DNA of 64,000 bases from Dehalococcoidia bacterium (lineage in GTDB: Bacteria; Chloroflexota; Dehalococcoidia; Bin125): positions 320,001 through 384,000 of the forward strand of contig CAXXRD010000002.1 in the NCBI GenBank assembly GCA_963663895.2, in the 5' to 3' direction. Positions 8,765 through 54,415 of the stretch are shown here, piece by piece (positions within the stretch are counted from its first letter, which is position 1; every line of letters starts with the position of its first letter). A model generated the notes under the pieces. It was not told the origin of the DNA and searched no databases. It was given only the letters and a program-made list of their open reading frames with translations. A program made the position numbers and the translations under genes.

Positions 8765-11291
8765 CTACCCAGGCACCGCAAGAGGGAACTCTTCTTCCTT
8801 GAACACGATCGTGAACTTTCCCTTTGCGGGACCATCATCAACCTGGACCATTCCGCACTCGTACGTCTCGCCCCGATTCAGCCACTGCTCAAGCGTGTCG
8901 AAGAGATTGCGCTTGTAGTCGGTATCGGGATTGTCGAGATGCTTCCCCTTCGTCTCGACCATGAGGAACTGCGACTTCTTGTCGCTGTTCGTGGACATCG
9001 CAACGAAGTCCGGCCAGATGCGCTCCCGGCTTCCAGCCGCGAAGGTAGTACTCGTACTGCTGGCGGACGGCGATGCGGTGCCACCACTGGATCGCGTGAT
9101 GCTGGTCCGCGTAGAACGCGAAACGCCGCTCCAGATCCGAGTCGAACTGCCTGTCTAGGACCGTCTCGAACAGACTGCGCTGCACCGGCTGCTGATTGTA
9201 TGTGAGAGGTGGTTCGTCGGAGCTCACCGCGAGATCGAAGCTGTCGTACATGCGGAAGTTGGGGCGAGCGGCCTTGAGGTCAAAGCGAATCTCTCCCCGG
9301 TGGAGCTTCTCGCGGAACACGTCCTCCGCCTTCCGTTCGATCTGATCGGCGACGTGCTCCCGGAGCTGGGAGACCTGGAAGCGGCGCTGCGCGTAGATCT
9401 CTTCGTCGCTCAGCCCTCCGCGGCTCAGCGTCTCGATGAGTTCGCCGGCGATGCGAGCGGCCTGCCACGGATTGGGGATGAGGTCCGTGATCTGGCGGGT
9501 GAACCACTCAAGCGTGACCGTCGTATCCACCTCGATCGCTTCCTGCCGCACGGAAGGGTGGTAGCCGTCCCCAAGGTCGAACTCGATCATCTCAATGGAC
9601 GGTCCGTCGCCGGTCCCCGGGATCGCGGGTTGCGCCGGCGCGCTGATGGAACCCCACGCGATCGCCGAGAGGATGTGGCGGTGGTAGTCCAACTCTCGCC
9701 AGCCGCCGTTGCCGTCGGTGTGCAGCACCTTCGGGAGGAAGATGTCGCGGTTGCGGAAGCGCTCGCGCCGCCGCACGGTCCGCACCTGCATGTCCGTCGC
9801 GCTCACGCCGAACACGTCGTCTCCGATGCCCGTCAGCCCTTCCTTTTCGAGGCCGTTCTTCACCTGGTTGATGGCCGTGTCGACGGCGGTCTGCCAGCAG
9901 AAGACGTAGGAGCGATCGAGCCCATCGCGGCCCGTGCGGCGGGCGCAGGGCTGACGCATGACGCGGCCCATCAACTGCGTGATCGCCGTTGGGCTGCGAG
10001 TGTTGTCGAGCATCACGAGCAGATAGGCGAAGGAGCAGTCCCAGCCCTCCATCAACGCCGCCTTCGTGATGATCCAGCGCACGGGCGAGTATTCGGAAAG
10101 CAGGTCTTCATTCGCGATTTCGTCCAGTTCGGCGGACTTCACGGCCACTGCCTCCGGCGGCACGCCCAGCTGCTGCGTGAGGTAATCGCGCACGTCCTCG
10201 GCGTGGATATGGTCGTGGCTGCGTTGCTGCTTGCCCGTACGCTCAACGCGCACCACGGCGATGGGGCGGATGTAGCGTCCCTCGCTCGCGTCCAGCGATT
10301 CAGCCTCTTCGCTCAGATCGCTCAGCTTGTCGTACGCGCGCGACAGCGTCTCCTGCCAGCCGGCGTTGTCAACGGACGTGATCTCGATGGGCAGCTTGAT
10401 CATCTCCTCTTTCTTGAGGTCGACGCCGGAGATGTCCACGAGGAGGTTACTGACGTTGCGATGCGGTGTGGCGGAAAGCTCGATCACCATCCGGGGGTTG
10501 AGGCGGTTGACGGAGGCGACGAACTCGTCCGCGCCCTTGCCGCCGTAGGCCTTGTGCGCCTCGTCGAGCACGACGACGGGGCGCAGCAGCTTGAAAGCGT
10601 TGAAGAGGCTGTGCTTCACCGTCCCACCGCCGGAGCGCTCCAGATCGGGATGGCGTTCCAGCAGGGCGTCTGAGGCGCGCTCATCGTCGCTGGCGGGGAA
10701 CAGCGTCGGGTAGCGCCCCGAGTCGCGGAACATTCGCAGGAACTCCTTGCCCTTCCGCCGGTTCGTAGCGGGGAGCATCAGGAGCATCACACAGAGATAG
10801 TGCTCCACGTCCTGCCGCGTGAACGGGACATCCTTTTCGAGCATCTTCACGCGCCCACCACTGGCCCGCTCCAGCATCTGCCGGTATGGGTGCTCCCTAT
10901 TCCAGAAAGCAGCTCGCGTCTGCGCGTAGATGGCGCGGCTGGGGACGATCCAGAGGACAAGCCCCGTCTGCATCCCTAGCCGTTCGAGCGCCGCCGCGCC
11001 CAGCAGCGTCTTGCCGCCGCCCGTCGGAATCTTGAAGCAGGCGTGGGGAATGGGACGGCCGGCGCCGTCGGCGCGCGCGACGTAGGGCGCGGCGAGGTTC
11101 GCCACGTCGCCCGCCTCCGCGAGCCGCTTCCAAGCGGCGCGGGGGAAGTTCCGGTCCGAGTCCGCGACCTCAAGGCCCGCCCCTTCAAGCACAGCCGCCT
11201 TCGCTTCCGCTTCCCCGCGTGCGGCGTCAAGCGCCTTGCGCCAGCGGTCGAACGCCTCCAGCGTGCGGTGCTGGTACTCCTTCAGTTCCAC
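8765..11291 (-). CDS. res: Type III restriction enzyme Res subunit (SF2 helicase + PD-(D/E)XK nuclease), frameshifted at 9028-9029
   Basis: LKEYQ, PTGGGKT, DEAH, ELSATP, EGWD, QLMGRVMR; removing one G at 9028/9029 joins WKRERIWPDFVA...VETKG (nuclease motif) of ORF 8765..8998. Confidence 0.88.
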
Positions 11292-11298
11292 CGCTCGC

Positions 11299-12903
11299 CT
11301 ACCGCAGCCGGTGAATCTCGTAGGGCAGCTGGCAGAACGTGATGTGGTACTCGGCCGTCAGGTCCTGCTGACTGATGTACTTGGCCGCGCCGAAGACGAT
11401 CGCCTCCTTCGATCGCCCCGTGCCGATGCGCTTCGCCCGTTGCTCGTTGAGCACGGCGTCCTCGCTCTGGAGCCACTCGACGCTGGGTTCGTAGAGGAGA
11501 AAGTAGTCGCGCCGGTCGTCGCTATAGAAATGGCCGTCCTCGTCCATGGCGCGAAGCTGGCCCGTGCGCGCGGAGACGCCCGTGGCGGTGTGCAGCAGCC
11601 AAGCGGCGAGCGCCGGGAAGTCCGGCAGCGCGTCGCCCCGCAGCATTCCCTCGACTGTGATCGGGACGCCCAGGGTGCAGTAGGTAAACGTACCGCCGAG
11701 CCCCTCACGCAAGGCGTCGTCTTTCGCATCTGGGACGCCCGCGATGACGCGGCGCACGCGCTCAGCCGTGATCGTGTCGGCGTAGTCCTCGCACTCTACG
11801 AGGATGAATTTACGATTCCCTTCGTCCGCTTCGTTGAGGGCAAGGACGGCGTGAGCGGTAGTGCCGCTACCGGCGAAGGAGTCGAGGACAATGCCATCAT
11901 TCGGACATCCTTGAACGATCAGTTGACGGATAAGTTTATGTGGCTTAGGAAATTCGAAAACTCGTGAGCCAAAAATCTCCTCTATCTCTTTAGTTCCATT
12001 CCTAGTGAAAATACCGTCACCGATAATTGAGGAGAATCCAGTAAATTGTTCCTTCAATTCATTAAGGAAAACTTTGATCCTCGGTCTTCCCGTTTGCTTC
12101 TTTGGCCAGAGTATTCTTTTCTCAGAGATCAGTTCTGCCATACGTTCCTGGTCATACCGCCATCCTCGAGGAGGACATCCATAGTTTTCTTTCGTTTCCG
12201 GGTTGATGAGGTCAAAATGCAGATTTGGCCGGGAATCTTTCTTTGCAAGCCCAACCATATTACCGCTAATCCAATCGCCTCTCGGATCGTTATCAGGATT
12301 AGAGTACAATCCAGCCTTTCTCTCGTCCCCTCGGATAGACTTTCCGTAAGAAACAACATATTCGTGGTCTATCGAGGCCCCATTCACGTTGCGATTATCT
12401 TTATTTTGGCGACTCTTCCAGACAAACTCTCCTAGAAAAAGTGCCTCTCCAAAAATATCATCCATTAGCATCCGTAGATGATGCTGCTCATTATCGTCGA
12501 TGGATATAAAAATCACTCCGTCGTCTGACAGAAGCTCTTTGAGTATATGTAGGCGAGGCCACATCATGCACAGCCACTTGTCGTGGCGTTCGAGGTCCTC
12601 GCCGTCGATCGGTGAGTTCTGCTTGAACCACTCCTGGTGGAGCGGGCTGTTGACGTTGTCGTTGTACGCCCAGTCCTCGTTCCCGGTGTTGTACGGCGGG
12701 TCGATGTAGATGCACTTGACGCGGCCCGCGTAGCGCGGCAGCAGCGCCTTCAGTGCGTGCAGGTTGTCGCCGTGGATGACAAGGTTGCCATCGGTGGCGG
12801 GCTCCTCCACTGATCTCGCGGGGTCGGGAACGAGGGGCCGGTAGGGAACCGTCAGGTGGTGGGCGTAGACGTGTGCTTTGCCCTTGAACTCCAGTGCGGA
12901 CAC
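11299..12903 (-). CDS. mod: Type III restriction-modification methyltransferase Mod (N6-adenine, beta class)
   Basis: IHGDNL, YIDPPYNTG, ISIDDNE, FEFPKP, LDSFAGSGTTAHAV; directly upstream of res. Confidence 0.93.
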   Translation of the reverse strand: MSALEFKGKAHVYAHHLTVPYRPLVPDPARSVEEPATDGNLVIHGDNLHALKALLPRYAGRVKCIYIDPPYNTGNEDWAYNDNVNSPLHQEWFKQNSPIDGEDLERHDKWLCMMWPRLHILKELLSDDGVIFISIDDNEQHHLRMLMDDIFGEALFLGEFVWKSRQNKDNRNVNGASIDHEYVVSYGKSIRGDERKAGLYSNPDNDPRGDWISGNMVGLAKKDSRPNLHFDLINPETKENYGCPPRGWRYDQERMAELISEKRILWPKKQTGRPRIKVFLNELKEQFTGFSSIIGDGIFTRNGTKEIEEIFGSRVFEFPKPHKLIRQLIVQGCPNDGIVLDSFAGSGTTAHAVLALNEADEGNRKFILVECEDYADTITAERVRRVIAGVPDAKDDALREGLGGTFTYCTLGVPITVEGMLRGDALPDFPALAAWLLHTATGVSARTGQLRAMDEDGHFYSDDRRDYFLLYEPSVEWLQSEDAVLNEQRAKRIGTGRSKEAIVFGAAKYISQQDLTAEYHITFCQLPYEIHRLR

Positions 12904-13463: not shown

Positions 13464-14318
13464 CTACCCCACCCCGCGCTGGAAAGCCGCCTCGGCGGCG
13501 GCGTCCAGGGCCGTGCGCAGGGCGTGACCGTCGCGGGCGAGGACGCGGAGGTAGGCGCCGCAGCCGTTGGGGAGCAGGGAGGCGCCGGCCCAGGCGTCCA
13601 GCGGGGCGACGGCCGCGCGCAGATCGCCGACGCACCCGCCGTCAAACGGCGCGCCAAGGGCGTAGACGGCGCCCTGGGCGGGGAAGCGGCGCAGGGTTTC
13701 GCGCAGCTCGGGGCGGCGCTGGGGGTCGGCGATGCGCTGGCGATCGACGGCCCGCGGCTCGCCGTCCGCGTCGCTCACGATCAGCTCGCTCTCGAAGAGC
13801 CGGAAGAGTCCAGGGGCGGCGGCCTCGGGCGCGTGATGGAGAAAGGCCTCCCGCACCACCGCCCGCGCGCCCGGCGCAAGCTGGACCCGGGTGGACGAGG
13901 CCGCGCGGGCGTCCGGGAACAGGATCAGGGGGTCGGCGGAGTACTCCACGCATCCGGAGGCCGCGACCCGCAGATCGACGTGGGTGGCCGCCAGCTCCCC
14001 GTCGCTGCGATGGATCTTGGTGGCGGCCTGCGTGACAAGCCGGACGCGGGCGGCCTCGCCGATCTCCACGTACAGGGAGAGCCGGTCGCCGGCGAAGAGC
14101 CCGCCCGACACCGATTGCAGACAGAGCGTGGGCAGATCGGGGCGCTCGGGATCAAGGTAGAGCGGCTTCACGACGTGGTGCGGGTACTCGCAGTACTGGT
14201 GCACGAGCGTCGTGCGGCCGTCCGCGTCCCGCTCGAAGCGGAGCTCCGCGCGCGCCTCCAAACCGGCATCGACGGGGGCCGGAGGCGGCCGGCCGAGCGC
14301 CGCTTCCGCCACGGTCAC
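13464..14318 (-). CDS. ureD: Urease accessory protein UreD/UreH
   Basis: [30 protein letters not shown]; GTG start overlaps the ureG stop (GTGA). Confidence 0.88.
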
Positions 14319-14950
14319 CGCGCCGCCGCCAGCGCCCGCGCGCGCGCCGCGTCGATCTGCGCCAGCACGCCCTCCAAGCCCTCGCCGGTCAGGCAGTTGG
14401 TATAGGCGACGGGGCGCTCCCCGCGCGCGCGGGCCAGCTCCCGCCGCATCCGATCGAGGTCGGCGCGCACGTAGGGCGCGATGTCGATCTTGTTGACCAC
14501 GAGCAGGTCGCACTGCAGGATGCCGGGGCCGCGCTTGCGGGGGATGTCGTCGCCGGCGCCGACGTCGATGACGAAGAGCCAGGCATCGACGAGCTCGGAG
14601 GAGAAGGTGGAGGCGAGGTTGTCGCCCCCGCTCTCGATCACGACCAGGTCCAGGCGGGGGCAGGCGCGTTCCAGCCGCCGCAGCGCCTCGTTGTTGAGCG
14701 AGGGGTCCTCGCGGATCGCCGTGTGCGGGCAGGCGCCGGTCTCCACGCCCAGCACGCGCGCCGGGTCGATGAAGCCGCGCCCGCGCAGGCGCTCCGCGTC
14801 CTCCTGCGTGAGCAGGTCGTTGGTGATGATGGCGATCTCCCAGCCGCGCTCTTGCAGGCGCGGAACGAGCGCCTCGATCAGGGCCGTCTTGCCGGAGCCG
14901 ACGGGGCCGCCGATCCCCAGGCGCAGGGGCCGGGCCGCGCGATCCGTCAT
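14315..14950 (-). CDS. ureG: Urease accessory GTPase UreG
   Basis: [36 protein letters not shown]; ATG overlaps the ureC stop. Confidence 0.96.
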
Positions 14951-16659
14951 CGCAGCAGGTAGCGCTGCGCCAGCGGCAACTCGGACGCGGGCGCACAGGT
15001 CGCCAGCTCGCCGTCGACGTAGACGCGGAAGGTCTCGGGATCCACGCGCATCTCGGGGCAGGCGGCGTTGTGCAGCATGTCGCGCTTGCCCAGCTCCCGC
15101 GTGCCGCGCGCGCCCACCAGCCGCTTCTCGAGCCCCAACGTCCCGCCCAGGCCGGCGTCGAGCGCGGCCTGCGAGACGAAGCTGACGCTGAGCGCCTGCT
15201 TGGCCCGTCCGAAGGCGCCCCATTGGGGCCGCATCGTCACCGGCTCGCAGGTCATCAGCGAGGCGGCGCTGTCGCCCATCGCCGCCCAGGCGATGAAGCC
15301 GCCCTTGATCACCAGCTCCGGCTTGATCCCGAAGAAGGCGGGGCGCCAGAGCACGACGTCGGCCAGCTTGCCGTCCTCCAGCGATCCGATCTCGTGATCG
15401 ATGCCGAAGGCCCGCGCCGGGTTGATGGTGTACTTGGCGATGTAGCGCTTGATGCGCTCGTTGTCGCCGCGGGCGACGCGCTCCTCGGCCAGCCGGCCGC
15501 GCTGGTCGCGCATCTTGCTCGCCAACTGCCAGGTGCGGCAGATCACCTCGGCGATGCGGCCCATCCCCTGGCTGTCCGAGCCGAGCATCGAGATCGCGCC
15601 GATGTCGTGGAGAACGTCCTCGGCGGCGATCGTCTCCGCGCGGATGCGGCTCTCGGCGAAGGCGACGTCCTCCGGCACGGAGGGGTTGAGGTGGTGGCAG
15701 ACCATGGTCATGTCGAGGTGCTCGTCGAACGTATTGACCGTGTAGGGGTTCGTCGGGTTCGTCGACGAAGGGAGGCAGTTGGGCTCGCCCGTGACGCGGA
15801 TGATGTCGGGCGCGTGGCCGCCGCCGGCGCCCTCCGCGTGGTACATGTGGATCGTCCGGCCCTTGATGGCAGCGAGCGTGTCCTCCAGGAAGCCGCTCTC
15901 GTTGAGCGTGTCCGTGTGCAGCTGCACCTGGAAGTCCATCTCGTCGGCGACCGAGAGGCAGCAGTCGATCACCGCCGGCATGGCGCCCCAGTCCTCGTGG
16001 ATCTTCAGCCCCAGGCAGCCCGCCTCGATCTGGTCGACGAGCGATCGCGGCTTGGAGGAGTTGCCTCGTCCCAGGAAGCCGAAGTTCATCGGCCAGGCCT
16101 CGGCCGCCTGCAGCATGCGGGCGACGTTCCAGGCGCCGCCGCAATCGATCCCGACCGTGATCGGCCCCAAGGAGCCGCCCAGCATGGTGGTGATGCCGCT
16201 GCTGATCGCGTGGGCGACGAGCTGGGCGCTGTCGAAGTGCACGTGGCAGTCGATGGCGCCGGGGGTCGCGATCAGCCCCTCCCCATCGCGCACGGTGGTC
16301 GCGGCGCCGCACAGCAGCCGCGGGTCGACGTTGTCCATGGTGGCGGGGTTGCCCGCCTTGCCGATGCCGACGATGCGGCCATCCTTGATGCCGATGTCGC
16401 CCTTGACCACGCCCACGATCGGGTCGATCACCACCACGTTGCTGACGAGCATGTCGAGGGAGCCGTCGGCGCTGGCAAGCCCCGGCACGAGACCGAGACC
16501 GTCCCGTAAGGTCTTGCCGCCGCCGTGGAGCCCCTCGTCTCCGGGGAAGGCGTGGTCGTGCTCCACCTCCGCTAAGAGCGCAGTGTCGCCCAGGCGGACG
16601 GCGTCGCCGGTGGTGGGGCCGTAGAGCGTAGCGTAGCGGGAGCGGGAGATCGTCGCCAT
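14947..16659 (-). CDS. ureC: Urease alpha subunit (divergent substrate pocket)
   Basis: [56 protein letters not shown]. Confidence 0.96.
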
Positions 16660-16662: not shown

Positions 16663-17358
16663 TCACGCTCCCCCAAAGCCGCGCTCAGCGGCGCGGCGCA
16701 GGGCGGCCGCTTCGACCGGCGGCTGCGTGCGATCGCCGTCCGTCAGGCTGTTCAGGCCGAAGAGCTCGCCGCTGCCCCCGAACTCCACCAATGAGACTTC
16801 CTTGCTCTCACCGGGCTCGAAGCGCTGCGCCGTGCCGGCCGGGATATCGAGGTGCATCCCGAACGCCGCCGGGCGATCGAACTCCAGGGCACGGTTGACT
16901 TCGAAGAAATGGTAGTGACTGCCGACCTGCACCGGCCGGTCGCCCTGATTGACGACGCGCACGGTGGCGCTGCGCCGTCCCGCGTTGAGCTGGATCTCTC
17001 CCGCCGCGGGGAGGATCTCGCCGGGAACGACCGCTGTGGCCTGGGGCTCTTGGCCGGGCCGGATCGGATCGTGCAGCGTGACCAGCTTGGTGCCGTCTGG
17101 GAAGGTCGCCTCGACCTGGATCATGGGCGTCATCGCCGCGACGCCGGGCAACACGTCATCGGTGGTGAGGATCGTGGTTCCCGCGGTGATCAGCTCCGCG
17201 ACGGAATGCCCGTCGCGGGCACGCTCCAAGATCTCGTCCGAGATGAGCGCAACGGCCTCCGGATGGTTCAGCTTGAGCCCGCGCGCTCTGCGTTTGCGCG
17301 CCAGCTCGGCCGCGCTGAAGATCAGGAGGCGCTCGGTTTCCGTCAGCGTCAGCAGCAT
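16663..17358 (-). CDS. ureAB: Fused urease gamma/beta subunit
   Basis: [10 protein letters not shown]...[11 protein letters not shown] (gamma) followed by PGE...[15 protein letters not shown]...[14 protein letters not shown] (beta) in one ORF. Confidence 0.95.
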
Positions 17359-17385: not shown

Positions 17386-18072
17386 TCAGTTCGCGAACAA
17401 GCGGCTGTCGATCTGCTCGTGGCGCAGGACAGCCAGTTCGACGATTGGAGCATAGCTAGCGAGCGCCTCGATCGGGGGCGGAGGCTGCGCCAGCATCTCC
17501 GCGAGCGCCGGTTGCATCGCCGTGAGCAAGCGCTGCCCCTCGACCGCACCGAGCGCCCCAAGCCGGATGGCCGCGCCCAGCACTCCCACGCACAGGGCGT
17601 GGGCGGCAACGGCGGCGGCCTCGGCTTCACTGAGTCCGGCACCGCGCCAGAGCAGTCCCTGGCAAGCGGCCAAATGCCCCGGAGCCGTGTGACGGCCGAC
17701 CCGCTCTTGATAGGCCCGGGCATTGGGCGTCGCCAACTGGCCGTGGACCCCCAACAACGCCGCTCCCGCCCGGCAGGAACCCTCTCGCAGCTCCTTGGGG
17801 AGCGTCGCCGCCTCCAGCGCGCGATCCGCGATCGCAACGGCCTCCAGGTCGTCGGCGGCGCGATGCGCGGCGGCGATGACCGCCCTGTCGCATTCCGCCC
17901 AGCGACCGAGTACCTGCTCCCGCAAGAGCCGTCCGACCTCCTCGCCGCTCGGCAGGCGGCCCTCAATATGCAGCGTCTCCACCCCCTGGGAGAAGGCCAC
18001 TCCTCCACTCGGGAAAAAGCTGTCCCCATGCTGCAGCGCTGGCAGTAACGCCACGGTCGAACTCAGATCCAA
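17386..18072 (-). CDS. ureF: Urease accessory protein UreF
   Basis: LQHGDSFFPSGGVAFSQGVE N-terminus, RLFAN C-terminus; start uncertain (TTG 18072 or GTG 18054), abutting the soxG stop. Confidence 0.9.
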   Translation of the reverse strand: MDLSSTVALLPALQHGDSFFPSGGVAFSQGVETLHIEGRLPSGEEVGRLLREQVLGRWAECDRAVIAAAHRAADDLEAVAIADRALEAATLPKELREGSCRAGAALLGVHGQLATPNARAYQERVGRHTAPGHLAACQGLLWRGAGLSEAEAAAVAAHALCVGVLGAAIRLGALGAVEGQRLLTAMQPALAEMLAQPPPPIEALASYAPIVELAVLRHEQIDSRLFAN

Positions 18073-18713
18073 GGTGGACGGAAACCATCGACCTCGATGC
18101 CGAATTCCGTCCCCGCATCGAGCACCGCATCGAACAGGTACTGCCCGAAAGCGCGGTCGCACTGGAGCAAATAGGCAGGCTCGCCGTCGCGGTCGTGCCG
18201 GACGATCTCGGCAACCAGCTTGGCGACCGAGCTGCGGAAGGCCGCGCCGTCGGGCGTGACGCCGTCGCTAAAGTCGATCGCACAGATCTTGGCAAGCAAC
18301 GCGGCGGCTGCGGCCCCGGCCAGCCGCATCAGCGCGTGGCCGTGCGTCACCTCCACCGCGCTCAAAAACTCGTCGCCGCCGTCGTCTCGATCGAGCGCCG
18401 CGACCGACGCCAGCCGCTCCTCCGCGCCGGGCGGTCCCAGGAGCGTCCACTCTCCAGGTCCCCAACCGATCACGAGCAGGTCCGGACTGAGTAGCCGCGC
18501 TGCGCCGAAGCCGACACCGAAGCGTGCGTGGAACCGCCCTTCCCCATCTCCCCGGGCCAACAGTTTCGCCAAGGGCGTGCAATCGGTGAGGCGCAGCACG
18601 GCGCCGCTGCGGCGTCCGCTCATCTCCCAGCCCTGCGCAACGACAACCGGCGGGAGCGGCGTGATGGGGCTGCGCGCGAGCAGCCGAGCCACTGGAGCGC
18701 CGCCCTCAGACAC
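18063..18713 (-). CDS. soxG: Heterotetrameric sarcosine-oxidase-type gamma subunit (NMG dehydrogenase subunit D)
   Basis: GPGEW, EVTHG, LAKICAIDF, DRAFGQYL; GTG start overlaps the alpha-subunit stop. Confidence 0.8.
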   Translation of the reverse strand: MSEGGAPVARLLARSPITPLPPVVVAQGWEMSGRRSGAVLRLTDCTPLAKLLARGDGEGRFHARFGVGFGAARLLSPDLLVIGWGPGEWTLLGPPGAEERLASVAALDRDDGGDEFLSAVEVTHGHALMRLAGAAAAALLAKICAIDFSDGVTPDGAAFRSSVAKLVAEIVRHDRDGEPAYLLQCDRAFGQYLFDAVLDAGTEFGIEVDGFRPPWI

Positions 18714-21543
18714 GAAGCCGCAGCCCTTCGGGATCGTAGTGCGCGTGATGCTCCATGACACGCACGGGCAGGCGACGGCCGTCGACGAGCCGCACGTCCA
18801 CCATCGTGCCCGCAGCGGCCAGCCGGGGCTCGACAAAGCCGAGGCAGATCGATCGCCCCAGCGTCGGCGACAGGCGGCTCGACGTGATCCGTCCCACGAT
18901 CGCCCGCTCGCCCTCAACGATCTGGCAGCCCTCGTCCGGCACGATCGATTCGTCGGCGGGCTGCAGTCCGACGAGCACCTGCTGATCGTCGCGTTGCGCG
19001 GCCCAGACGAGCTCCGGCTTTCCGATGAAGTCCTCCTTATCCAGCTTCACCAAGGCGCCGACGCCGGCGGCGTAGGCCTGGGTGAGGCCGTCCGTATCCT
19101 GCCCGACGATGAAGTGGCCCTTCTCCAAGCGCATGATGCGCTGGGCTTCGATGCCGAAGGGCGCAACGCCCAGGTCCGCGCCCGTAGCAAGCAACGTTTC
19201 CCAGAGCTGGAGACCGTAGGCGGCAGGCGCATGAATCTCGTAGCTCAACTCGCCGGTGAAGCCGATGCGCCACATGAAGCAGCCCGGAATGCCGGCAACG
19301 GCACCGCTGCGCACACGCATGTATGGAAAGGCCGCCGGATCGAGATCGATCCCATCGACAAGACGCTGCATCAGCGTCCGCGCTTTCGGCCCGGCCACGT
19401 TGATGCTCGCCAAAGCGCTCGTCCGGGGCGTGACGTGGATCCGCCATTGCGGATGCTCGGTTTGGAGGATGTTCTCGATCCAGCGCCACACGGTCTCGGG
19501 ACCCGAGGAGGTCGTCGTCATGATGTAGCAGTCGTCGGCAAGGCGGCCGGTGACGCCGTCGTCCAGGATGACGCCGTCCTGTCCACACATGACGCCGTAG
19601 CGCACGGAGCCCACCGCCAGCTTCATCCATTTGTTGACGTAGAGATAGTTCAGCAGGCGGGCGACATCCGGTCCCCGCAGCTCGAACTTTCCCAGCGGCG
19701 TCACATCGATGATGCCGACGTTCTCCCGAACGTTCCGCACCTCGGCCGCCGGGTCGCCGTAGTGATCGGGCCGGATCCACTGTCCCGCCACGAGCGGCTT
19801 CGCGCCCTGTCGTGCATGCCAGGGTTGCAGGGATGAATAGGCGACCGGCTGGAAGCTGCGCCCCGCGAGCGCCCCCAGCGACACGGGAGCATACGGTGGA
19901 CGCCAGGTCGTCGTGCCCGTCCCGGCGATGTCGCGCCCGGTCGCCTCGGCGTGCACCGCCACGGTGTTGACGAGCTCCAGCTTGCCCTGCGCCGGTCCCA
20001 TCGTCGCGGTCGTGAAGCGCTTGGCCAGCTCGATGGAATCAAAGCCCTCGCGCACGGCGCCGACCACGTCCTTGGAGGAGACATCTTCCGAGTAGTCCAC
20101 GATGCCGTGCGTGCTCGATCGAAACAGGGAGGGCGCCGTGTCGATCGGCAAGGCGGGAAGCGGATCGGGCGGCGTGGTGCGGTCGTCACGCGCCCGGGCG
20201 CGCCGCGCCGCCTCCCCGCCGACGGCACGGGCATGATCGATGATCTGATCGAGCGTTCCGTCGCCCGCGATCCCTCCCGCCGCCAAGAGATCGTCCGGGA
20301 GGTCGCGCGGGAAGAACCGCCCGGCGCGCGGATCGTACGCGGGCCGGACGCCCGCCATGTTGAGCAGCGCCGTGGGTGCGGTCCATCCGACGGCCGTGAC
20401 GAGCAGGTCCGCCTCCACCACCCGCCCTCCCGCCAGCTCGACCTCCCGCAGGCCGCCGCCCCCGCGCGCCGCCACGACATCCTCGCCCCGCCGTGCGTCC
20501 ACGACCGCAGCCAGCTGGACGTCCGCGCGTTCGAGATCGGCGATCGCCCGGTCCCCCTCAGCGTTCGCCGTCAGCACAACGACACGCTCGCCGGGGCGGA
20601 CCGCGTAGAGGTTGATCAAGCGGCGCACGGCGGTCGAGAGCATCACCCCGGGTTTGTCATTGCCGGCGAAGACGTAGGGACGTTCGATCAAGCCGGGTGC
20701 GACCACCAGCACGTCCGCCCGCGCTTTGATGAGGCGCTCGCGGGCATGGGGAAGATCACGCTGCGCCACGGCCACCCAGTTATCGTCGTAGCGGCCGATC
20801 ACGGCGGAGTTCGTTAAGACCTCGATCGAGGGCGCGCCCGCGACGGCGGCACGAAGCTCCGCGAGCCGCGCGAGCTGCGCCGCGTCCCCCCAGCGGAGAT
20901 GGCCGCCGAGCTCGTACTCCTCCTCGACGAGTAACACACGGGCCCCGGCGGCAGCGGCGGCGGCGGCGGCGGCCATCCCGGCGGGGCCGCCGCCTGCGAC
21001 GAGGACATCGGGGTGCGCGTAGCGCTTGTCGTAATAGCCCCCCGCCGCGCTGCGTGGCACTTTGCCTCCGGGAGCGAAGCGACGAAATACCCGCTGGTAG
21101 ACGGGCCACAGCACCCGGGGCGCCATGAACGTCTTGTAGTAAAACCCCGCGGGCAGCAGGCGGCTGATCGCTTGATTGACCGCACCGAGATCATGCCGCA
21201 GCGAGGGCCACGCGTTTTGGGACCGCACTTGCATGCCCGGTTCGACGCGTCGGTGCGCAGCCCGCACATTCGGCTCGCCGTCCACCTGCACGAGACAGCC
21301 GGGGTCACTGAAGTTCGCCGTCAGCAGGCCGCGCGGGCGGTGGTACTTGAAGCTGCGGGAGAAGACGCGCTGCCCGCAAGCGGCCAGGGCGGAAATGATC
21401 GTGTCCCCTTGGTAGGCGGGATAGCGATCCCCATCCCAGCTAAAGGTGAGCTGGCGGCCTCGATCGATCAGCTCGCCCGCCTGCGGTGCGAGCCGCTGGG
21501 TCATGCGGGCAGGGATGGTGGGTGGCGTGCCGGCGCTTGTCAT
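18706..21543 (-). CDS. soxA: Sarcosine-oxidase-type alpha subunit (NMG dehydrogenase subunit C; Fe-S/NAD/GcvT domains)
   Basis: SRSFKYHRPRG, GFYYKTF, GGGPAG, KRFTTATMGPAQGK, DVTPLGK, RIGFTGELSYEI, RLEKG. Confidence 0.93.
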   Translation of the reverse strand: MTSAGTPPTIPARMTQRLAPQAGELIDRGRQLTFSWDGDRYPAYQGDTIISALAACGQRVFSRSFKYHRPRGLLTANFSDPGCLVQVDGEPNVRAAHRRVEPGMQVRSQNAWPSLRHDLGAVNQAISRLLPAGFYYKTFMAPRVLWPVYQRVFRRFAPGGKVPRSAAGGYYDKRYAHPDVLVAGGGPAGMAAAAAAAAAGARVLLVEEEYELGGHLRWGDAAQLARLAELRAAVAGAPSIEVLTNSAVIGRYDDNWVAVAQRDLPHARERLIKARADVLVVAPGLIERPYVFAGNDKPGVMLSTAVRRLINLYAVRPGERVVVLTANAEGDRAIADLERADVQLAAVVDARRGEDVVAARGGGGLREVELAGGRVVEADLLVTAVGWTAPTALLNMAGVRPAYDPRAGRFFPRDLPDDLLAAGGIAGDGTLDQIIDHARAVGGEAARRARARDDRTTPPDPLPALPIDTAPSLFRSSTHGIVDYSEDVSSKDVVGAVREGFDSIELAKRFTTATMGPAQGKLELVNTVAVHAEATGRDIAGTGTTTWRPPYAPVSLGALAGRSFQPVAYSSLQPWHARQGAKPLVAGQWIRPDHYGDPAAEVRNVRENVGIIDVTPLGKFELRGPDVARLLNYLYVNKWMKLAVGSVRYGVMCGQDGVILDDGVTGRLADDCYIMTTTSSGPETVWRWIENILQTEHPQWRIHVTPRTSALASINVAGPKARTLMQRLVDGIDLDPAAFPYMRVRSGAVAGIPGCFMWRIGFTGELSYEIHAPAAYGLQLWETLLATGADLGVAPFGIEAQRIMRLEKGHFIVGQDTDGLTQAYAAGVGALVKLDKEDFIGKPELVWAAQRDDQQVLVGLQPADESIVPDEGCQIVEGERAIVGRITSSRLSPTLGRSICLGFVEPRLAAAGTMVDVRLVDGRRLPVRVMEHHAHYDPEGLRLRV

Positions 21544-21815
21544 GGCGCGCCGCGATCGGCCGGGCGCGGAGGGAGAGCGGCTGCTCGAATCTCGTTCGTG
21601 CGGGTGTCACGCTCGACCATGAAGTAGCGCCGACAGCCGGATTGGTGATACCACCACTCGCTTGCCAAGCCGGCCGGGTTCGTCCGCATGTAGAGATAGC
21701 GCCGCCAAACGGCGGGCGGCGCGGCGTTGGGATCGGGCGTGCGGAGAACCGCGTCCGCGTAGGCGAACTCGGAGGCGTTGCGGGGCCCGCAATGCACGCA
21801 AGGGATCAAGAGCAT
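21540..21815 (-). CDS. soxD: Sarcosine-oxidase-type delta subunit (NMG dehydrogenase subunit B)
   Basis: MLLIPCVHCGPR..EF, YLYMRTNPAG, EWWYHQSGCRRY, RDTRTNEI. Confidence 0.92.
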   Translation of the reverse strand: MLLIPCVHCGPRNASEFAYADAVLRTPDPNAAPPAVWRRYLYMRTNPAGLASEWWYHQSGCRRYFMVERDTRTNEIRAAALPPRPADRGAP

Positions 21816-21828
21816 GAATGCATCTCCA

Positions 21829-23108
21829 TCAGTGTCCCACAGCAGCGGCGCCTTTCTCCCCCACGAGGCGCCCATCCCCGAATCGTGCCAGGTCGAAGGT
21901 CTCGATGATGGCCGGCGTCTCTCCGGTCGCCACGAGCTGCGCCATCGCCTCACCGGAGACGGGACCCGCCTTGAATCCATAGGTCCCCCAACCGACATCG
22001 ACGTGGAACCCCTCGACGGGCGTCTTGCCGAGGATCGGCGAGAAGTCGGGGGTCATATCACAGAGGCCGGCCCACTGCCGCAGCACGCGCAGCGCCGCCA
22101 GGGAGGGGAAGAGCTCCAATACATGCGCCGCCACCTCCTCCGTGAACTCGAGGCTCCCGCGAGTCGAGTAGGCGGGATAGGGGTCGACACTGGCGCCGAG
22201 GACCAGTTCGCCGCGCGCCGTCTGGCTCACATAGACGTGCAGGGTGCCGGACACGATCACAGGATCCAGAAAGAACTTGACGGGCTCGGTCACGGCCGCT
22301 TGGAGCGGGAAGGTGGTGATCGGCAACTCGACGCCCGCCATCGCCGCCACGGTGCTCGACCAACCGGCCGTGCAGTTGATCACGACCGGCGTGGCGATCG
22401 GCCCGCGGCTGGTGGCGACCCCGCGCACGCGACCGCCCTCGACTTCGATGCCGAGCAGGGTGGTCCCTTGATGGATATGGACGCCGTGCGCGTCCGCGCC
22501 CCTGGCGTAGCCCCAGACAACGGCGTCGTGCCGCACAATCCCGCCGGGGGGTGATAGAGAGCCCCCAGGATGGGAAAGCGCGTCGCCTCCGAGAGGTCCA
22601 GATACGGCGCCAGCTCTTTGATCTCCGCAGGACCGATCACTTCCGAATCGACGCCCTCCAGCTTGTTGACCTCCGCCCGCCAGCGCATGGTCCGCAGCGA
22701 GGCATCGTTGTGCGCAAGCGTGAGATGACCGCGCTGCTCGAACATCACGTTGAAATTGAGCTCGGCAGCGAGCCGCTGGTACAGGGTGAGAGAGCGGTTG
22801 TAGAAGCGCACGCCCTCCGACGTGAGGTAGTTCGAGCGGATGATCGCCGTGTTGCGGCCCGAGGCGCCGCCGCCGATGTAGCTCTTCTCCAGCACGGCAA
22901 CGTTGCGGATACCGTGCTTGGCGGCGAGGTAGTAGGCGGTCGCGAGGCCGTGGACGCCGCCCCCGATGATCACCACGTCGTAGTTGGGGGCCAGATCGTG
23001 GTGGGTCCATGCGGGCGGCCAGTCACGGCCGGTCAAGCCGTGGCGCAACAGGCTCAGGGCCGAGTAGTGCGCCGCCGGCCGCCGACCGCCGCTCAGTAGC
23101 CGCCGCAT
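21829..23108 (-). CDS. soxB: Sarcosine-oxidase-type beta subunit (NMG dehydrogenase subunit A, FAD), -1 frameshift in G6 run at 22546-22551
   Basis: ORF 22380..23108 gives IGGGVHGLATAYYLA, GRNTAIIRSNY; ORF 21829..23010 gives GGIVRHDAVVWGYA, DMTPDFSPI, GWGTYGFKA; one extra G restores LYHPPGGIVRH. Confidence 0.9.
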
Positions 23109-23174: not shown

Positions 23175-24533
23175 CTAGAACAACGTCAGATACTTCTCGA
23201 TCTCCCAAGCGCTCACGGCTTGATGGTACTCACGAAACTCCGCTCGCTTCGTCTCGATGTAGTAGTCGGCGTACCAGCCGCCGGGCACCTCTCCCAAGGC
23301 GGTGCGAAGCACGTCATCCCTCGCCAAGGAATCGACCGCATCCACCAGGGTTTGTGGAACCGTTCTGATCCCGCGCGCGGCCACTGCCTCGGGCGTCAGG
23401 GCGAAAAGATTGTCGCGATTGGGATCACCCGGGTCCAGTCCGCGATCGATCCCATCAAGGCCTGCGGCCAGTATGCCCGTTAAGGCCAGGTAAGGGTTCG
23501 CCGATCCATCGACGCCGCGATGCTCGACACGGTCCGCCTCCGGCACCCGCAGCATCTGGGTGCGGTTGTTGCCGCCGTAGGTCGCATAGGCCGGCGCCCA
23601 CGTTGCCCCCGAGGCGGGCGGCCCGACGCCGATCCGCTTATAGGAGTTGACCGTCGGCGCCGTGAGCGCGACGAGGCCGGGCGCGTGGTCGAGGATCCCG
23701 GCGATGAATTGGTAGGCGAGCGCCGACAGTCCCAGACCGCGGGCGTCGCCCGTTTCGTGGAAGAGCGGCCTACCGCCATCGTCCCAGAGACTGGCATGCA
23801 CGTGCATGCCGTTGCCGGTCAGGTGCGCGAACGGCTTCGGCATGAAGGTCGCCGCCAACCCGGCTTCCTGGGCCAGCGTGTGCACCATGTAGCGGAAAAA
23901 GATCACGCGGTCGGCCGTGGTCAGGGCGTCGGCGTAGGTGAAATTCTGCTCGAATTGACCGTTGGCGTCTTCGTGGTCGTTGGCGTAGTTGGCCCACCCC
24001 AAGCGATTGAGGTAGGTGGAAACGGTCGTGAGGTGGTCGTACATGCGCGTCAGGCCCTTGGCGTCGTAGCAGGGCTGCGCGGCGGTATCGAGCGGATCGG
24101 CGGGCTCGATCCCGCCTTCGTCCGTGCGTTTGACAAGAAAATATTCGACTTCGGCGCCACAGTTGAAGATCATCCCGCGCTCGGCCAAGCGTGCCAGTTG
24201 GCGCTTCAGGATCAGGCGCGGCGCGTAGGGCCACGGCTCGCCCTCAACGTGGATGTCGCAGTGCAGGACGGCCAGCCCCGGTCGAAACAGCACCGGCGTG
24301 TACGAGGCCGGATCCGGGATCGCTATCATGTCCGGATCAGCGGGCGTCTGTCCCATCGGTCCCGCAGCGAACCCCGCGAAGCCCGCGCCCTCCTCCATCA
24401 AGGTGTCGAACGAGGCGGCGGGGACGAGCTTGGCACAGGGCTTGCCATGCATATCGACGAACATCGCGAAGAAGAACTCGATGCCGTCCCGTTCCGCCTG
24501 TTTTCGTAGCTGCGCGTGATCGTCGTTAGCCAT
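23175..24533 (-). CDS. gmaS: Type III glutamine synthetase-like / gamma-glutamylmethylamide synthetase
   Basis: KLVPA, GAGFAGFA, QPCYD, DHEDANGQFE, FMPKPF, GNGMH, GATWAP, GNNRT; context between mgsABC and soxBDAG. Confidence 0.88.
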   Translation of the reverse strand: MANDDHAQLRKQAERDGIEFFFAMFVDMHGKPCAKLVPAASFDTLMEEGAGFAGFAAGPMGQTPADPDMIAIPDPASYTPVLFRPGLAVLHCDIHVEGEPWPYAPRLILKRQLARLAERGMIFNCGAEVEYFLVKRTDEGGIEPADPLDTAAQPCYDAKGLTRMYDHLTTVSTYLNRLGWANYANDHEDANGQFEQNFTYADALTTADRVIFFRYMVHTLAQEAGLAATFMPKPFAHLTGNGMHVHASLWDDGGRPLFHETGDARGLGLSALAYQFIAGILDHAPGLVALTAPTVNSYKRIGVGPPASGATWAPAYATYGGNNRTQMLRVPEADRVEHRGVDGSANPYLALTGILAAGLDGIDRGLDPGDPNRDNLFALTPEAVAARGIRTVPQTLVDAVDSLARDDVLRTALGEVPGGWYADYYIETKRAEFREYHQAVSAWEIEKYLTLF

Positions 24534-24649
24534 CGGGGTCCTCCGGGCGCTGCGCCGTGCTGACGGCTGTTCAGGATAGGCCGCCTGGGAAGCGGCTGAC
24601 TGCTAGCGGGGAAGCGCTCTCGCTACTATGGACGGAGTGGAGGAAGGTC
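24534..24649. promoter_or_regulatory. Divergent promoter region gmaS / mgsABC
   Basis: 116-bp gap between divergent starts; TACTAT -10-like box at 24624-24629 and ggagg SD before mgsA. Confidence 0.5.
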
Positions 24650-25534
24650 ATGTGCGGCATCGTCGGGCTTCATTGCAAGAGCCCGGAGCTCCATTCCCAA
24701 CTGGGCGTACTCCTGAGCCAGATGCTCCTCGCCATGAGCGAGCGCGGGCCGGACTCGGCCGGCATCGCCCTCTACGAGGAAGGGCTGCCGACGGGGAGCC
24801 TACGCTATTCGCTGCGAGCGCCGGGACCCGGCTACGATTGGGAGGGCACGAGCGAACGGCTGGGCGAGGAGGCCGTGATCCATCCCGTAGCCGATGACGC
24901 GGTCCTTACCGCGACCGGCAGCCCCGCTGCCGTCCTGGAGAAGCTGGCCGCGCAAGCGCCCGACCTCCGTGTGTTCGCGTACGGCAGCGCCATGGAGGTG
25001 TACAAGGACATCGGCGCGCCTGTGGATATTCTGGAGCGCTACGGCATCGCCCAACGTTCCGGCTATCAAGGGCTGGGGCACACGCGCATGGCCACGGAAT
25101 CAGCGGTCACCACCGATCACTCGCACCCCTTCGCAACCGCCGCCGATCTCTGCTTGGTTCACAACGGCAGCTTCTCCAACCACGCAACAATCCGCCGGCG
25201 CCTGGAGGACGCGGGCGTCCGCTGCAGCACCGACAACGACTCGGAAGTGGCGGCGCGTTTCATCGCCTACCACATGCAGCACGGTGATGATCTGCAAGCG
25301 GCGCTCGGCAAGGTACTGGTGGAGTTCGACGGGTTCTTCACGTTGCTGGTGGCGTCGCGGAATCAGTTCGCCGTCGTCCGGGACGCGTTCGCCTGCAAGC
25401 CCGCGGTGATCGCGGAAGCGCCGGATTTCGTGGCGATGGCCTCCGAGTATCGAGCGCTCGCCCGATTGCCGGGTATTCAAGAAGCCGACATCTTCGAGCC
25501 CGGGCCCGAGGAGATCCACGTATGGTCACGCTGA
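24650..25534 (+). CDS. mgsA: N-methylglutamate synthase subunit A (class II glutamine amidotransferase)
   Basis: MCGIVG N-terminal Cys, RGPDSAG, GHTRMATES, HNGSFSNH, DSEV, ACKPAV. Confidence 0.9.
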   Translation: MCGIVGLHCKSPELHSQLGVLLSQMLLAMSERGPDSAGIALYEEGLPTGSLRYSLRAPGPGYDWEGTSERLGEEAVIHPVADDAVLTATGSPAAVLEKLAAQAPDLRVFAYGSAMEVYKDIGAPVDILERYGIAQRSGYQGLGHTRMATESAVTTDHSHPFATAADLCLVHNGSFSNHATIRRRLEDAGVRCSTDNDSEVAARFIAYHMQHGDDLQAALGKVLVEFDGFFTLLVASRNQFAVVRDAFACKPAVIAEAPDFVAMASEYRALARLPGIQEADIFEPGPEEIHVWSR

Positions 25535-26199
25535 GCTGCGCGGAGTTCAGTACGCGCGCGATTAATCGCGCGCTTGCGGAGCTGCCGGACGGATCGAGAG
25601 TTTCGATCACCGAGCCCCAGGGCAGGCACAACCTCGCCGTGGGCCTGCGCAACCAGATCACGATCACGATCGCCGGCAACGCGGGATATTTCATCGGGGG
25701 GCTGGGCGACGGGCCGTCGATCGTCGTCAACGGTTTCGTCGGCTGGTCCGTGGGTGAAAACTTGATGAGTGGAACGGTGCGGGTGCGCGGCAATGCCTCA
25801 GAGAGCGCGGGGGCATCGAGCCACGGAGGATTGGTCATCGTCGACGGCGACGCCTCCTCGCGCGCCGGGATTTCCTTGAAAGGGGGCACGCTTGTGGTTG
25901 CGGGGGACGCCGGGCACATGAGCGGATTCATGGCGCAGGCAGGCACGATCTTGATCGGCGGCGATGCCGGCGCAGGGCTGGGCGATTCCCTCTATGAGGC
26001 AGTGATCTACGTCGGTGGGGCCATCCGATCCCTCGGAGCGGATGCCCGGGTGGAAGAGCTGACGGAAAGCGACGTTCAACGCGTGCGACAGCTGATCCAA
26101 GAGACCGGTTTCGATCACATCGATCCCCAGAACGTGCAACGCGTGGCCTCGGCGCGCGCGTTCTACCACTTCAAGGCCGTAGCCGGACACGCGTACTGA
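25522..26199 (+). CDS. mgsB: N-methylglutamate synthase subunit B (GXGXG/GltB3 domain)
   Basis: GRHNLAVGL, ENLMSG, RAGISLKGG, GHMSGFMAQAG, LGDSLYE. Confidence 0.9.
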   Translation: MVTLSCAEFSTRAINRALAELPDGSRVSITEPQGRHNLAVGLRNQITITIAGNAGYFIGGLGDGPSIVVNGFVGWSVGENLMSGTVRVRGNASESAGASSHGGLVIVDGDASSRAGISLKGGTLVVAGDAGHMSGFMAQAGTILIGGDAGAGLGDSLYEAVIYVGGAIRSLGADARVEELTESDVQRVRQLIQETGFDHIDPQNVQRVASARAFYHFKAVAGHAY

Positions 26200-27575
26200 T
26201 GGCCCGCCCCTTGGACGAACCGCGCCTCCCCTACGACGCCAAGCGCCACAGTCACACGTTTCCGCCGGAGGCGATCGCGCAGATCACCCGGATGGCCGAA
26301 GTGGGCCGCTACGAGATCCGGGGTGGGGGCAGCAAGCGCCCGCTGCCCACATTCGACGATCTGGTCCTGCTGACGGCGTCCGCGTCGCGGTATCCGTTGG
26401 AGGGTTACCGCGAGCGCTGCGAGACGCGGACCGTGCTGGGGGCGCGGGCGGCGGCCAAGCCGATCACGATCGAGATCCCGATCACGATCGCCGGCATGAG
26501 CTTCGGCGCACTCTCCGCCAACGCGAAAGAGGCGTTGGGGCGCGGCGCCAGCGAAGTCGGAACATCGACGACGACCGGCGACGGGGGCATGACGGCGGAA
26601 GAACGGCGTGCATCCAAGCTCCTCGTCTACCAATTGCTGCCCTCACGCTACGGGTTCAACCCCGCCGACCTGCAGCAGGCCGACGCGGTCGAGGTGGTGA
26701 TCGGGCAGGGCGCGAAGCCGGGCGGCGGCGGCATGTTGCTGGGCCAGAAGGTGAGTGACCGCGTCGCGGAGATGCGGACGCTCCCCGCCGGCATCGACCA
26801 GCGATCGGCGAGCCGGCATCCCGATTGGACCGGGCCCGACGATCTGCGTATCAAGATCGAGGAGCTGCGCGAGGCCACAGGCTGGCAGATCCCGATCTAC
26901 GTGAAGATCGGGGCGACGCGCACGAACAACGACGTCAAGCTCGCCGTCGCCGCCGGCGCGGACGTGGTCGTGGTGGACGGGATGCAAGGCGGCACGGCCG
27001 CGACGCAGGACGTCTTCATCGAGCATGCGGGGATCCCCACGCTTCCCGCGGTGCGTCTGGCCGCGGAGGCGCTGCGGGAGATCGGAAAGCAGGACGAGGT
27101 GCAGCTGATCGTGTCCGGGGGCATCCGGTCGGGCGCGGACGTCGCCAAGGCCTTGGCGCTCGGCGCCGACGCCGTCTCGATCGGCACGGCCGTCCTGATC
27201 GCGCTGGGCTGCAACAGCCGCACCTATTTCCAAGATGGGCGCGAGATCGACGCCACGGCGGACTATCACGCCCTCGGCACCGAGCCGGGCTACTGTCACC
27301 ACATGGAGTCGGGCCGCTGCCCGGTGGGCATCGCCACGCAGGATCCGGCGCTCGAGCGCCGCTTGGATCCGGGCTGGGGCGGCCGCCGCGTCGCCAACTA
27401 CCTCCGGGCGCTGACGATGGAGCTGACGGCGCTCGCCCGGGCCTGCGGCAAGTCCAACGTCCACCATCTCGAGCCGGAAGACCTCGCTGCTCTCACGATC
27501 GAAGCCGCCGCCATGGCCCGCGTCCCCTTGGCCGGCACGAACTGGATCCCTGGATCGGACGCGCCCGGGCCCTAA
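26199..27575 (+). CDS. mgsC: N-methylglutamate synthase subunit C (FMN-binding glutamate synthase family)
   Basis: SRYPLEGYRE, AGMSFGALS, TTTGDGGM, GQGAKPGGGG, RHPDWTGPDDL, DGMQGGTAAT, SGGIR. Confidence 0.92.
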   Translation: MARPLDEPRLPYDAKRHSHTFPPEAIAQITRMAEVGRYEIRGGGSKRPLPTFDDLVLLTASASRYPLEGYRERCETRTVLGARAAAKPITIEIPITIAGMSFGALSANAKEALGRGASEVGTSTTTGDGGMTAEERRASKLLVYQLLPSRYGFNPADLQQADAVEVVIGQGAKPGGGGMLLGQKVSDRVAEMRTLPAGIDQRSASRHPDWTGPDDLRIKIEELREATGWQIPIYVKIGATRTNNDVKLAVAAGADVVVVDGMQGGTAATQDVFIEHAGIPTLPAVRLAAEALREIGKQDEVQLIVSGGIRSGADVAKALALGADAVSIGTAVLIALGCNSRTYFQDGREIDATADYHALGTEPGYCHHMESGRCPVGIATQDPALERRLDPGWGGRRVANYLRALTMELTALARACGKSNVHHLEPEDLAALTIEAAAMARVPLAGTNWIPGSDAPGP

Positions 27576-52498: not shown

Positions 52499-52732
52499 CT
52501 CTATCGTCCTTTCAGAGGATTGCTTGCGGCAGCGAAATCATCGCCTTGAGGGCAGAGCACGCCGCCGGAGAGCCATCTCGTCCCACGAACGGTCTGAATG
52601 CCTATGGTTTCAGACCGCTCCGGCAAGTGGGTCAAGTATAGGGCCCTGATTGTGCCCATGCGGGTCTGAGCAGACACGTCAGCCACGGCATAGCATTTTG
52701 CTTCCAGTGCGAATGAAACATAGACCAAGTCT

Positions 52733-52941: not shown

Positions 52942-53059
52942 CGGGAAGCTGGGCGTTATCGCACTGCACTCCTGCGGTTTATGGCCGAAGGCTGCCCTTC
53001 CAGGTCACGTTTGGGATTCAGGCCGTCGGTCAAGAACCATCTTCAACCGACCTCGCCCC

Positions 53060-54414: not shown

Positions 54415-54415
54415 G

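Follow-up and report, generated by a model that had tools for sequence, protein, structure and literature searches.

The window analysed here, a stretch of 64,000 nucleotides (nt) from a Dehalococcoidia bacterium (assembly GCA_963663895.2, contig CAXXRD010000002.1), carries a compact urease operon on its minus strand. The central gene is ureC (14947..16659), an open reading frame (ORF) for a urease alpha subunit of 570 amino acids that belongs to a divergent lineage, referred to below as clade V. Directly upstream lies its small-subunit partner, ureAB (16663..17358), which encodes the gamma and beta subunits fused in a single protein of 231 amino acids (NF009671, 352 bits with a cut-off of 243; Pfam Urease_gamma and Urease_beta) and stops 3 nt ahead of the ureC ATG. 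It is preceded by a ureF-like accessory gene (17386..18054; Pfam UreF, 93 bits). On the other side, the start of ureG (14315..14950; TIGR00101, 242 bits with a cut-off of 204) overlaps the ureC stop (ATGA), and that of ureD (13464..14318; Pfam UreD, 126 bits) overlaps the ureG stop (GTGA). All five ORFs are intact, with start and stop codons that overlap or lie at most 27 nt apart, and UreF, UreG and UreD for nickel maturation are all encoded in the operon. The genome, 2.37 Mb in 5 contigs, has a single UreC.

The ureC product scores 827.3 bits with the urease alpha-subunit (EC 3.5.1.5) model TIGR01792 (cut-off 680) and 887 bits with NF009686 (cut-off 354), and stays below the narrower equivalogs NF009685, NF009834 and NF010591; its Pfam domains are Urease_alpha and Amidohydro_1 (PF00449 and PF01979). 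Residues were compared in a phmmer alignment with the Klebsiella aerogenes UreC (1ejw_C), from which the K. aerogenes numbering (KAU) was mapped by hand. The six dinickel ligands, His139, His141, Lys219, His248, His274 and Asp362 (KAU 134, 136, 217, 246, 272 and 360), are all identical, and these residues are kept across clade V. The motifs around them are retained as well: HVH, GLKIHEDWG with the ligand lysine plus a His and an Asp, LHTD, the His of YHAEG and the Asp of SDSQ. The catalytic helpers are also in place, with the equivalents of His219 and Asp221 in KIHEDWG, the Cys-His pair in the mobile flap MVCHH (15691..15705, minus strand) and the Arg336 equivalent in ESRIR. An AlphaFold2 (AF2) model of the protein has the urease fold, with a template modelling (TM) score of 0.93-0.95 to the 39 urease chains listed. 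Its overall confidence is 86.4 (predicted local distance difference test, pLDDT), with a predicted TM score (pTM) of 0.91; the confidence is lowest at the segments described next (pLDDT of 65 in the block 161-170 and below 50 in 461-480).

The wall of the substrate pocket departs from the canonical one, which is formed by a loop of the type GGGTGPA-G-T-ATT-TPG with Ala167 and by SDSQAMGR with Ala363; the window UreC has neither. Its loop (residues 161-177; 16129..16179, minus strand, like all the segments named here) counts 17 residues where the canonical one has 20, and Gly170 stands at the Ala167 position; the placement of the gap inside the loop differs between HMMER and MAFFT. In SDSQGMGR (15556..15579), which holds the ligand Asp362, Gly365 occupies the Ala363 position. 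Both alanine positions that hold the urea nitrogen are therefore glycines. The HxH ligand pair is followed by clade-specific Asp, Ala and Leu in HVHFDSAQL (16219..16245), replacing an I-C-P-Q-Q segment. In EGLHGGGK (16513..16536), a His takes the place of a Phe, a difference fixed in 39 of 39 canonical sequences and in 209 of 209 members of clade V. Finally, a segment of 13 residues (15241..15279), in a part of the model with a pLDDT below 50, has clade-specific changes of N to A, I to L and P to M. The original prediction had called each of these changes, as well as the retention of the nickel ligands and catalytic residues, and the alignment bears all of them out; the range that it gave for the gene, 15241..16560, does lie in ureC, but the gene is longer. 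In Sporosarcina pasteurii, according to the description of urea binding by Mazzei, Musiani and Ciurli (2020, PMC7433671), the Ni(2)-bound nitrogen of urea is held by the backbone carbonyls of Ala170 and Ala366 (167 and 363 in K. aerogenes); Ala366 is also in contact with the distal nitrogen and, through its C-beta, with the water on the Ni(2) side. The backbone carbonyl donors of the pocket may still be in place in the window enzyme.

The 120 best database relatives of the window UreC are 81-99% identical to it; among 122 full-length sequences, 106 have exactly the same loop and 121 have SDSQGMGR. When one genome was scanned for each prokaryotic species, 512 relatives were obtained, the best 80 of which are 78-98% identical and come mostly from Alpha- and Gammaproteobacteria, many of them metagenome-assembled genomes (MAGs) with marine or sponge-type names. 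Cultured carriers include Pelagibius, Amorphus coralli, Labrys, Marinibaculum, Propylenella and Paracoccus limosus. Copies on megaplasmids, at 74-78% identity, are found in Methylobacterium radiotolerans JCM 2831, Aminobacter (several strains), Shinella, Ancylobacter and one Acinetobacter, and the next-best plasmid ureases reach at most 62.6%. The presence of clade V was confirmed at 80 genome loci; of the 401 alphaproteobacterial genomes sampled, 13 carry it (12 of them motif-verified together, G002 separately). Everywhere, it is annotated simply as "urease subunit alpha". The solved ureases are 50-58% identical to the window UreC model, which is below the identity of at least 74% inside the clade.

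For the group comparison, 39 canonical UreC were set against 209 members of clade V, with one locus from an unpublished genome left out. The window UreC is 77.5-99.5% identical to the members and 53.5-63.5% to the canonical enzymes, and pairwise identity among the 209 is 74-99%. The Gly of the SDSQ motif is present in all 209, and most loop positions are equally invariant; in the pocket-wall columns, the canonical residue is found in 37-39 of the 39 canonical enzymes and the clade V residue in every member of the clade. When a column is counted as fixed differently if it is at least 93% fixed in each group and the residue differs between them, there are 28 such columns. Twelve fall within a stretch of 35 residues, KAU 138-172 (hypergeometric P ~6e-9); the others include A363G, three columns in MGD-NASIPT and two just past it. 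With this degree of conservation, clade V is under strong purifying selection. The original prediction spoke of a remodelled pocket, to be checked by alignment and phylogeny. The coordinated differences are indeed real and concentrate in the Ni(2)-side wall; however, they are not local to this gene but mark, in fixed form, a widespread lineage that branches deeply, and are shared by 209 of 209 relatives.

This depth is visible in a quick maximum-likelihood tree of 38 full-length sequences, from which 14 fragmentary or frameshift-looking representatives had been dropped. Clusters at 50% identity do not part clade V from canonical urease, since both are lumped at this level, and their representatives were used only for sampling deeper branches. 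Clade V forms one branch with a support of 100 (Shimodaira-Hasegawa-like approximate likelihood ratio test, SH-aLRT). A split supported at 99 separates the canonical ureases, together with degenerate relatives without ligands, from a short-loop group composed of clade V, a sister clade (L093/L094/L104) that is a third ureC copy in some Alphaproteobacteria, and several more distant clades. These other clades (the sister clade; P0129-P0137, P0153 and P0167; L154-L160) have the short loop and all the metal ligands, like clade V, and mostly SDSQGMGR. Unlike clade V, they have mostly lost the Cys-His of the flap (MLAH, MTCHL, MTAH), and their scores with the urease model are lower, at 530-800 bits. 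Clade V is the only short-loop clade of the tree with the full catalytic flap; L155, outside the tree, also keeps Cys-His-His (MTCHH). Since the short loop and Gly363 are common to the whole group, the remodelling is an old character of the branch. L093, L094, L104 and L154-L160 come from the alphaproteobacterial genomes G004-G006, G350, G499, G569, G609, G677 and G694; G350 lacks a canonical UreC but holds three short-loop paralogs that differ from one another.

We consider it fairly probable that clade V is a genuine nickel urease isoform, and infer its activity on urea from the intact chemistry with a full set for nickel maturation, from neighbourhoods that make or import urea and from its status as sole urease in several genomes. 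As far as can be judged from sequence, it most likely still splits urea, and a shifted substrate range is less likely. The enzyme would consist of two polypeptides, the fused UreAB and UreC, matured by their own UreF, UreG and UreD, and by UreE in most relatives. A carbamylated lysine would bridge the two nickel ions; urea would bind with its oxygen on Ni(1), held by His221, and with one nitrogen on Ni(2), and the bridging hydroxide would attack it while the Cys-His of the flap closes over the site. What would differ is the wall around the nitrogen on Ni(2), where both carbonyl-donating residues are Gly and the loop of the first one is three residues shorter and presumably re-packed. These changes probably tune affinity, rate or side-activity and do not abolish urea hydrolysis.

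At a score typical of canonical or clade V enzymes, clade V provides the only UreC-like match in the genome of the window, in G010 and in six of the 13 alphaproteobacterial carriers, two of which (G350 and G499) also hold other short-loop paralogs. In G008, the only other match is a short-loop fragment at the end of a contig. Of the 301 Chloroflexota genomes sampled (one of them unpublished), 49 have a UreC-like match, nearly all above 900 bits, and the score range of clade V is occupied only by the genome of the window and by one unverified match at 849 bits. The G+C content at third codon positions (GC3) of the window ureC is 0.96, with 0.80-0.90 in the neighbouring genes. This value and the rarity of clade V in Chloroflexota suggest that the gene was probably acquired horizontally, and there are hints of Proteobacteria as the source.

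The neighbourhoods of clade V were compared by clustering the ORFs of the 80 loci and annotating the cluster representatives; the counts depend on this clustering and on the contig flanks, 65 of the 80 loci having at least 6 kb upstream. The fused UreAB is found in 77 of them. Four settings recur: one with AmiC/AmiR, one that is DmgH-like, one in sponge-type Rhodospirillales and one with sarcosine-oxidase-like genes. Of the informative neighbourhoods, most supply or import urea. Urt-type permeases occur in 25 loci and, together with ATPases, belong to the AmiC/AmiR setting described below. Twelve loci have arginase-family genes just upstream, in tandem where inspected, and ten of these twelve also have HypA. 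This DmgH-like setting consists of a NitT/TauT-type ATP-binding cassette (ABC) system, HypA and tandem arginase-family genes directly upstream of ureE. The Pseudomonas mendocina pMET-2 operon has the order hypB-hypA-two ureohydrolases-HupE, which is the arrangement described for metformin hydrolase, and the second of its ureohydrolase genes, of the arginase family, shares 66.6% identity with the second arginase gene of L053. According to the account of Sinn et al. (2024, PMC11399263), DmgH is the predecessor enzyme and releases dimethylamine and urea, a urease is encoded downstream, and a Hyphomicrobium homolog with 70% identity has the same activity. In Aminobacter niigataensis DSM7050, the urease downstream of DmgH may belong to clade V. 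Purine catabolism also appears around the megaplasmid copies. The one of Aminobacter lies between allantoinase/allantoate amidohydrolase genes and the sensor-and-importer genes described below, while that of Methylobacterium adjoins urate-catabolism genes and a gene annotated as urtA; the copies stand beside urtBCDE or urtA. Minami et al. (2016, PMC5017803) mention that urease genes are present in about three copies in some Methylobacterium, and make no distinction between types. Nine loci from sponge-type Rhodospirillales have an aminotransferase, small ORFs and, after ureC, a cytosine-deaminase-like amidohydrolase and an amidase, and ureG and ureD are not nearby. Sarcosine-oxidase-like genes occur in six loci.

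The same loci bear on the metal. If the enzyme used a metal other than nickel, or were adapted to the metal supply like the iron urease UreA2B2 of Helicobacter mustelae, the pocket changes could reflect this. A paralogous urease with changed metal use is a precedent (3qga), and UreE was not found anywhere in the genome of the window, which is 91% complete. Still, UreF, UreG and UreD are encoded here and UreE in 57 of the 80 related loci, a HupE/UreJ nickel permease is adjacent in eight and HypA in ten, and the six ligands are identical to those of nickel ureases. We therefore hold a change of metal to be very improbable.

A number of observations weigh against a plain urease isoform, the missing UreE being one of them. 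The fixed differences cluster at the substrate pocket, as would be expected if the function had changed. Canonical UreC, with its motifs confirmed, stands beside clade V in eight of ten proteobacterial carrier genomes tested, and in the even sample of 401 alphaproteobacterial genomes, seven of the 13 carriers have a canonical copy and six do not; that the canonical urease is kept so often argues against simple redundancy. Among the cultured carriers, Methylobacterium, Aminobacter, Labrys and Paracoccus limosus have both types. The term paralog used in the original prediction thus fits many Proteobacteria, but not the genome of the window, where this UreC is the only one. Moreover, 19 of the 80 loci carry an AmiC/AmiR pair (AmiR being an ANTAR regulator), in which the AmiC-like protein has Pseudomonas aeruginosa AmiC (1pea, 360 bits) as its best PDB match. 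The same setting includes a second binding protein, nearest to 8tg1 and to urea-binding UrtA structures, which reaches 405 bits where the UrtA cut-off is 492.75; nothing relevant on 8tg1 was found in the literature. An aliphatic amidase, AmiE, is encoded in 16 loci (719 bits with a cut-off of 427), often in this setting and with CbbQ/VWA genes. Canonical UrtA (at least 492.75 bits) is present in all five genomes with canonical urease (G001-G003, G007 and G009), was found in none of five genomes with clade V only (G350, G383, G499, G599 and G702) and is missing from the genome of the window. In that genome, at 91% completeness, a search for the arginase family, creatinase, UT and AmiS/UreI, with DUR3-type carriers and allantoicase outside its scope, found none of them; the only Creatinase_N protein looks like an Xaa-Pro peptidase. 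A literature search aimed at the lineage, which did not extend to the supplements of the cited papers, turned up neither an assay nor a structure nor any description of it, and identity to the window UreC is at most 58% among PDB chains. Lastly, the ure genes are here translationally coupled to genes of the N-methylglutamate pathway.

Four genes of the sarcosine-oxidase family, soxG/A/D/B-like and corresponding to mgdDCBA (18063..23108, minus strand), lie directly upstream of the ure genes, and the ureF-like gene starts at an in-frame GTG located 8 nt past the stop of the soxG/mgdD-like gene; this gap was read in the window only. Beyond them are a gmaS-like gene of the type III glutamine-synthetase family (23175..24533, minus strand; TIGR03105, 617 bits with a cut-off of 470) and a divergent mgsABC-like trio with GATase, GXGXG and glutamate-synthase domains (24557..27575, plus strand). 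All eight domain types of an N-methylglutamate cluster (gmaS, mgsABC and mgdABCD, named as in the literature, including PMC5017803) are thus present and adjacent, and the gene content points to a pathway for methylamine. The ure and methylamine-assimilation genes are probably co-transcribed as one nitrogen-scavenging unit. The same gmaS/mgd-like genes directly precede the ure genes in L003, a MAG with 98% identity, and in L004, a Dehalococcoidia MAG with 85% identity. A methylamine linkage general to clade V was considered and rejected, as only these two of the 80 loci, both from Chloroflexota, show it; four further loci have sox-like genes only.

The original prediction saw room for an N-substituent in the changed pocket and proposed a new specificity. 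Along these lines, clade V could be a urease-derived amidohydrolase that prefers an N-substituted urea such as N-methylurea, or some other small compound of the carbamoyl or amide type. The two Ala-to-Gly changes together with the shortened loop would make room at Ni(2) for the methylated nitrogen, and the products would be ammonia and N-methylcarbamate, the latter decaying to methylamine and CO2; the methylamine would enter the adjoining N-methylglutamate pathway. The concentration of fixed changes on the Ni(2)-side wall and the loss of both alanine methyls agree with this proposal (for the roles of the alanines, see PMC7433671), as do the canonical paralog in most proteobacterial carriers, the clade's own AmiC/AmiR sensor and its binding-protein subfamily in place of canonical UrtA. 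The position of the ure genes after gmaS/mgd-like genes in the window, L003 and L004 and the lack of the searched urea sources and importers in the 91% complete genome point the same way. Methylobacterium, Aminobacter, Hyphomicrobium, Methyloceanibacter, Ancylobacter and Paracoccus are genera that include methylotrophs, and many named carriers belong to them. However, the N-methylglutamate linkage is confined to two of the 80 related loci, and the DmgH-like and purine-catabolic neighbourhoods yield plain urea. The flap and all catalytic residues are unchanged, and the contacts lost are side-chain methyls, whereas the hydrogen bonds come from the backbone. As the short loop and the Gly at position 363 are common to other deep branches, they are ancestral to the branch and not a tailored adaptation. 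In addition, the literature search turned up no methylurea-specific urease. An enzyme for such compounds is hence unlikely, in our view. The stronger form of the proposal, in which clade V is not primarily a urease at all but an alkylurea or broader small-amide amidohydrolase with its own AmiC/AmiR sensor and binding protein, turning methylurea into methylamine, NH3 and CO2 in this sponge-type Chloroflexota genome and passing the methylamine to the N-methylglutamate pathway, appears distinctly unlikely.

One gene of the cluster is damaged. The soxB/mgdA-like gene for an FAD oxidase (21829..23108, minus strand) runs in two frames, changing from one to the other near 22540-22575; its counterpart in L003, 93% identical over the stretch, is one intact ORF of 432 amino acids with 4 gap columns relative to the window. 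The split is a frameshift or an assembly error. A damaged neighbour would fit a urease relic that is inactive or non-catalytic, the state reported for the structural genes of Brucella ure2. Yet, the five ure ORFs are intact with closely spaced or overlapping codons, the clade is conserved across phyla at a pairwise identity of at least 74% with motifs invariant in 209 sequences, and several genomes have no other UreC. Given the intact ORFs and the strong conservation, a pseudogene is rejected, and a relic of any kind is extremely improbable. A urease isoform that acts on urea stays the favoured interpretation.

Some other features of the window were recorded. Just downstream of ureD, at 8889-12903 (minus strand), lie an N6/N4 DNA methylase and a ResIII/DEAD helicase in a stretch with a G+C of 0.62-0.65, compared with ~0.70. 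Both genes are absent from L003 and L004, and an insertion, either mobile or of the restriction-modification type, is a possible origin. A protein of 722 amino acids encoded at 4526-6694 (minus strand) has a C-terminal domain like the large subunit of N,N-dimethylformamidase (301 bits). Homologs lie near clade V ureC in L003 (97%), L018 (29%) and L076 (32%), and no small subunit was seen. At 52001-56000, the G+C goes down to 0.60-0.62 and no gene was called by the GC3-based caller.

Among nickel enzymes, urease is the textbook case, with a pocket that is considered almost invariant and adapted to urea. Clade V is a large lineage in which the nitrogen-holding residues and the loop differ systematically, often beside a canonical urease and with a sensor and an importer of its own. 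Should it be a plain urease, it would represent a natural experiment on the extent to which the pocket wall can be dispensed with, and may explain why many bacteria have several urease copies. With a shifted substrate range, surveys that take ureC as a marker of ureolysis in oceans, sponges and soils would count a different activity, and the enzyme so far missing for alkylureas or similar nitrogen compounds would have been found.

Compared with the classical nickel ureases of K. aerogenes (UreABC) and S. pasteurii, the fold (TM 0.95, root-mean-square deviation 2.0-2.4 Å), the six metal ligands, the equivalents of His219, Asp221, Cys319, His320 and Arg336 and the accessory proteins UreD, UreF and UreG are the same. 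Clade V differs in being 53-64% identical, in the fusion of gamma and beta, in a loop after strand 2 that is three residues shorter, in Gly at the Ala167 and Ala363 positions, in an HxH motif followed by F-D-S-A-Q-L and not by the I-C-P-Q-Q type, and in 28 columns fixed differently. The UreA/UreB enzyme of Helicobacter pylori also consists of two polypeptides with a gamma-beta fusion, like that of the window; its UreB has the canonical long loop and both alanines and is 53-54% identical. The Helicobacter-type models are not reached by the window proteins (UreAB, 265 bits on NF010592 with a cut-off of 353; UreC, 744 bits on NF010591 with a cut-off of 1083). Brucella ure2 and H. mustelae UreA2B2 are, as clade V often is, second and diverged urease sets beside a canonical one. 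For Brucella ure2, the reported role is the transport of urea and nickel, with no active urease produced (PMC2868824). UreA2B2 is an iron enzyme by the title of its PDB entry (3qga), whereas clade V has a complete set for nickel maturation and occupies a separate deep branch.

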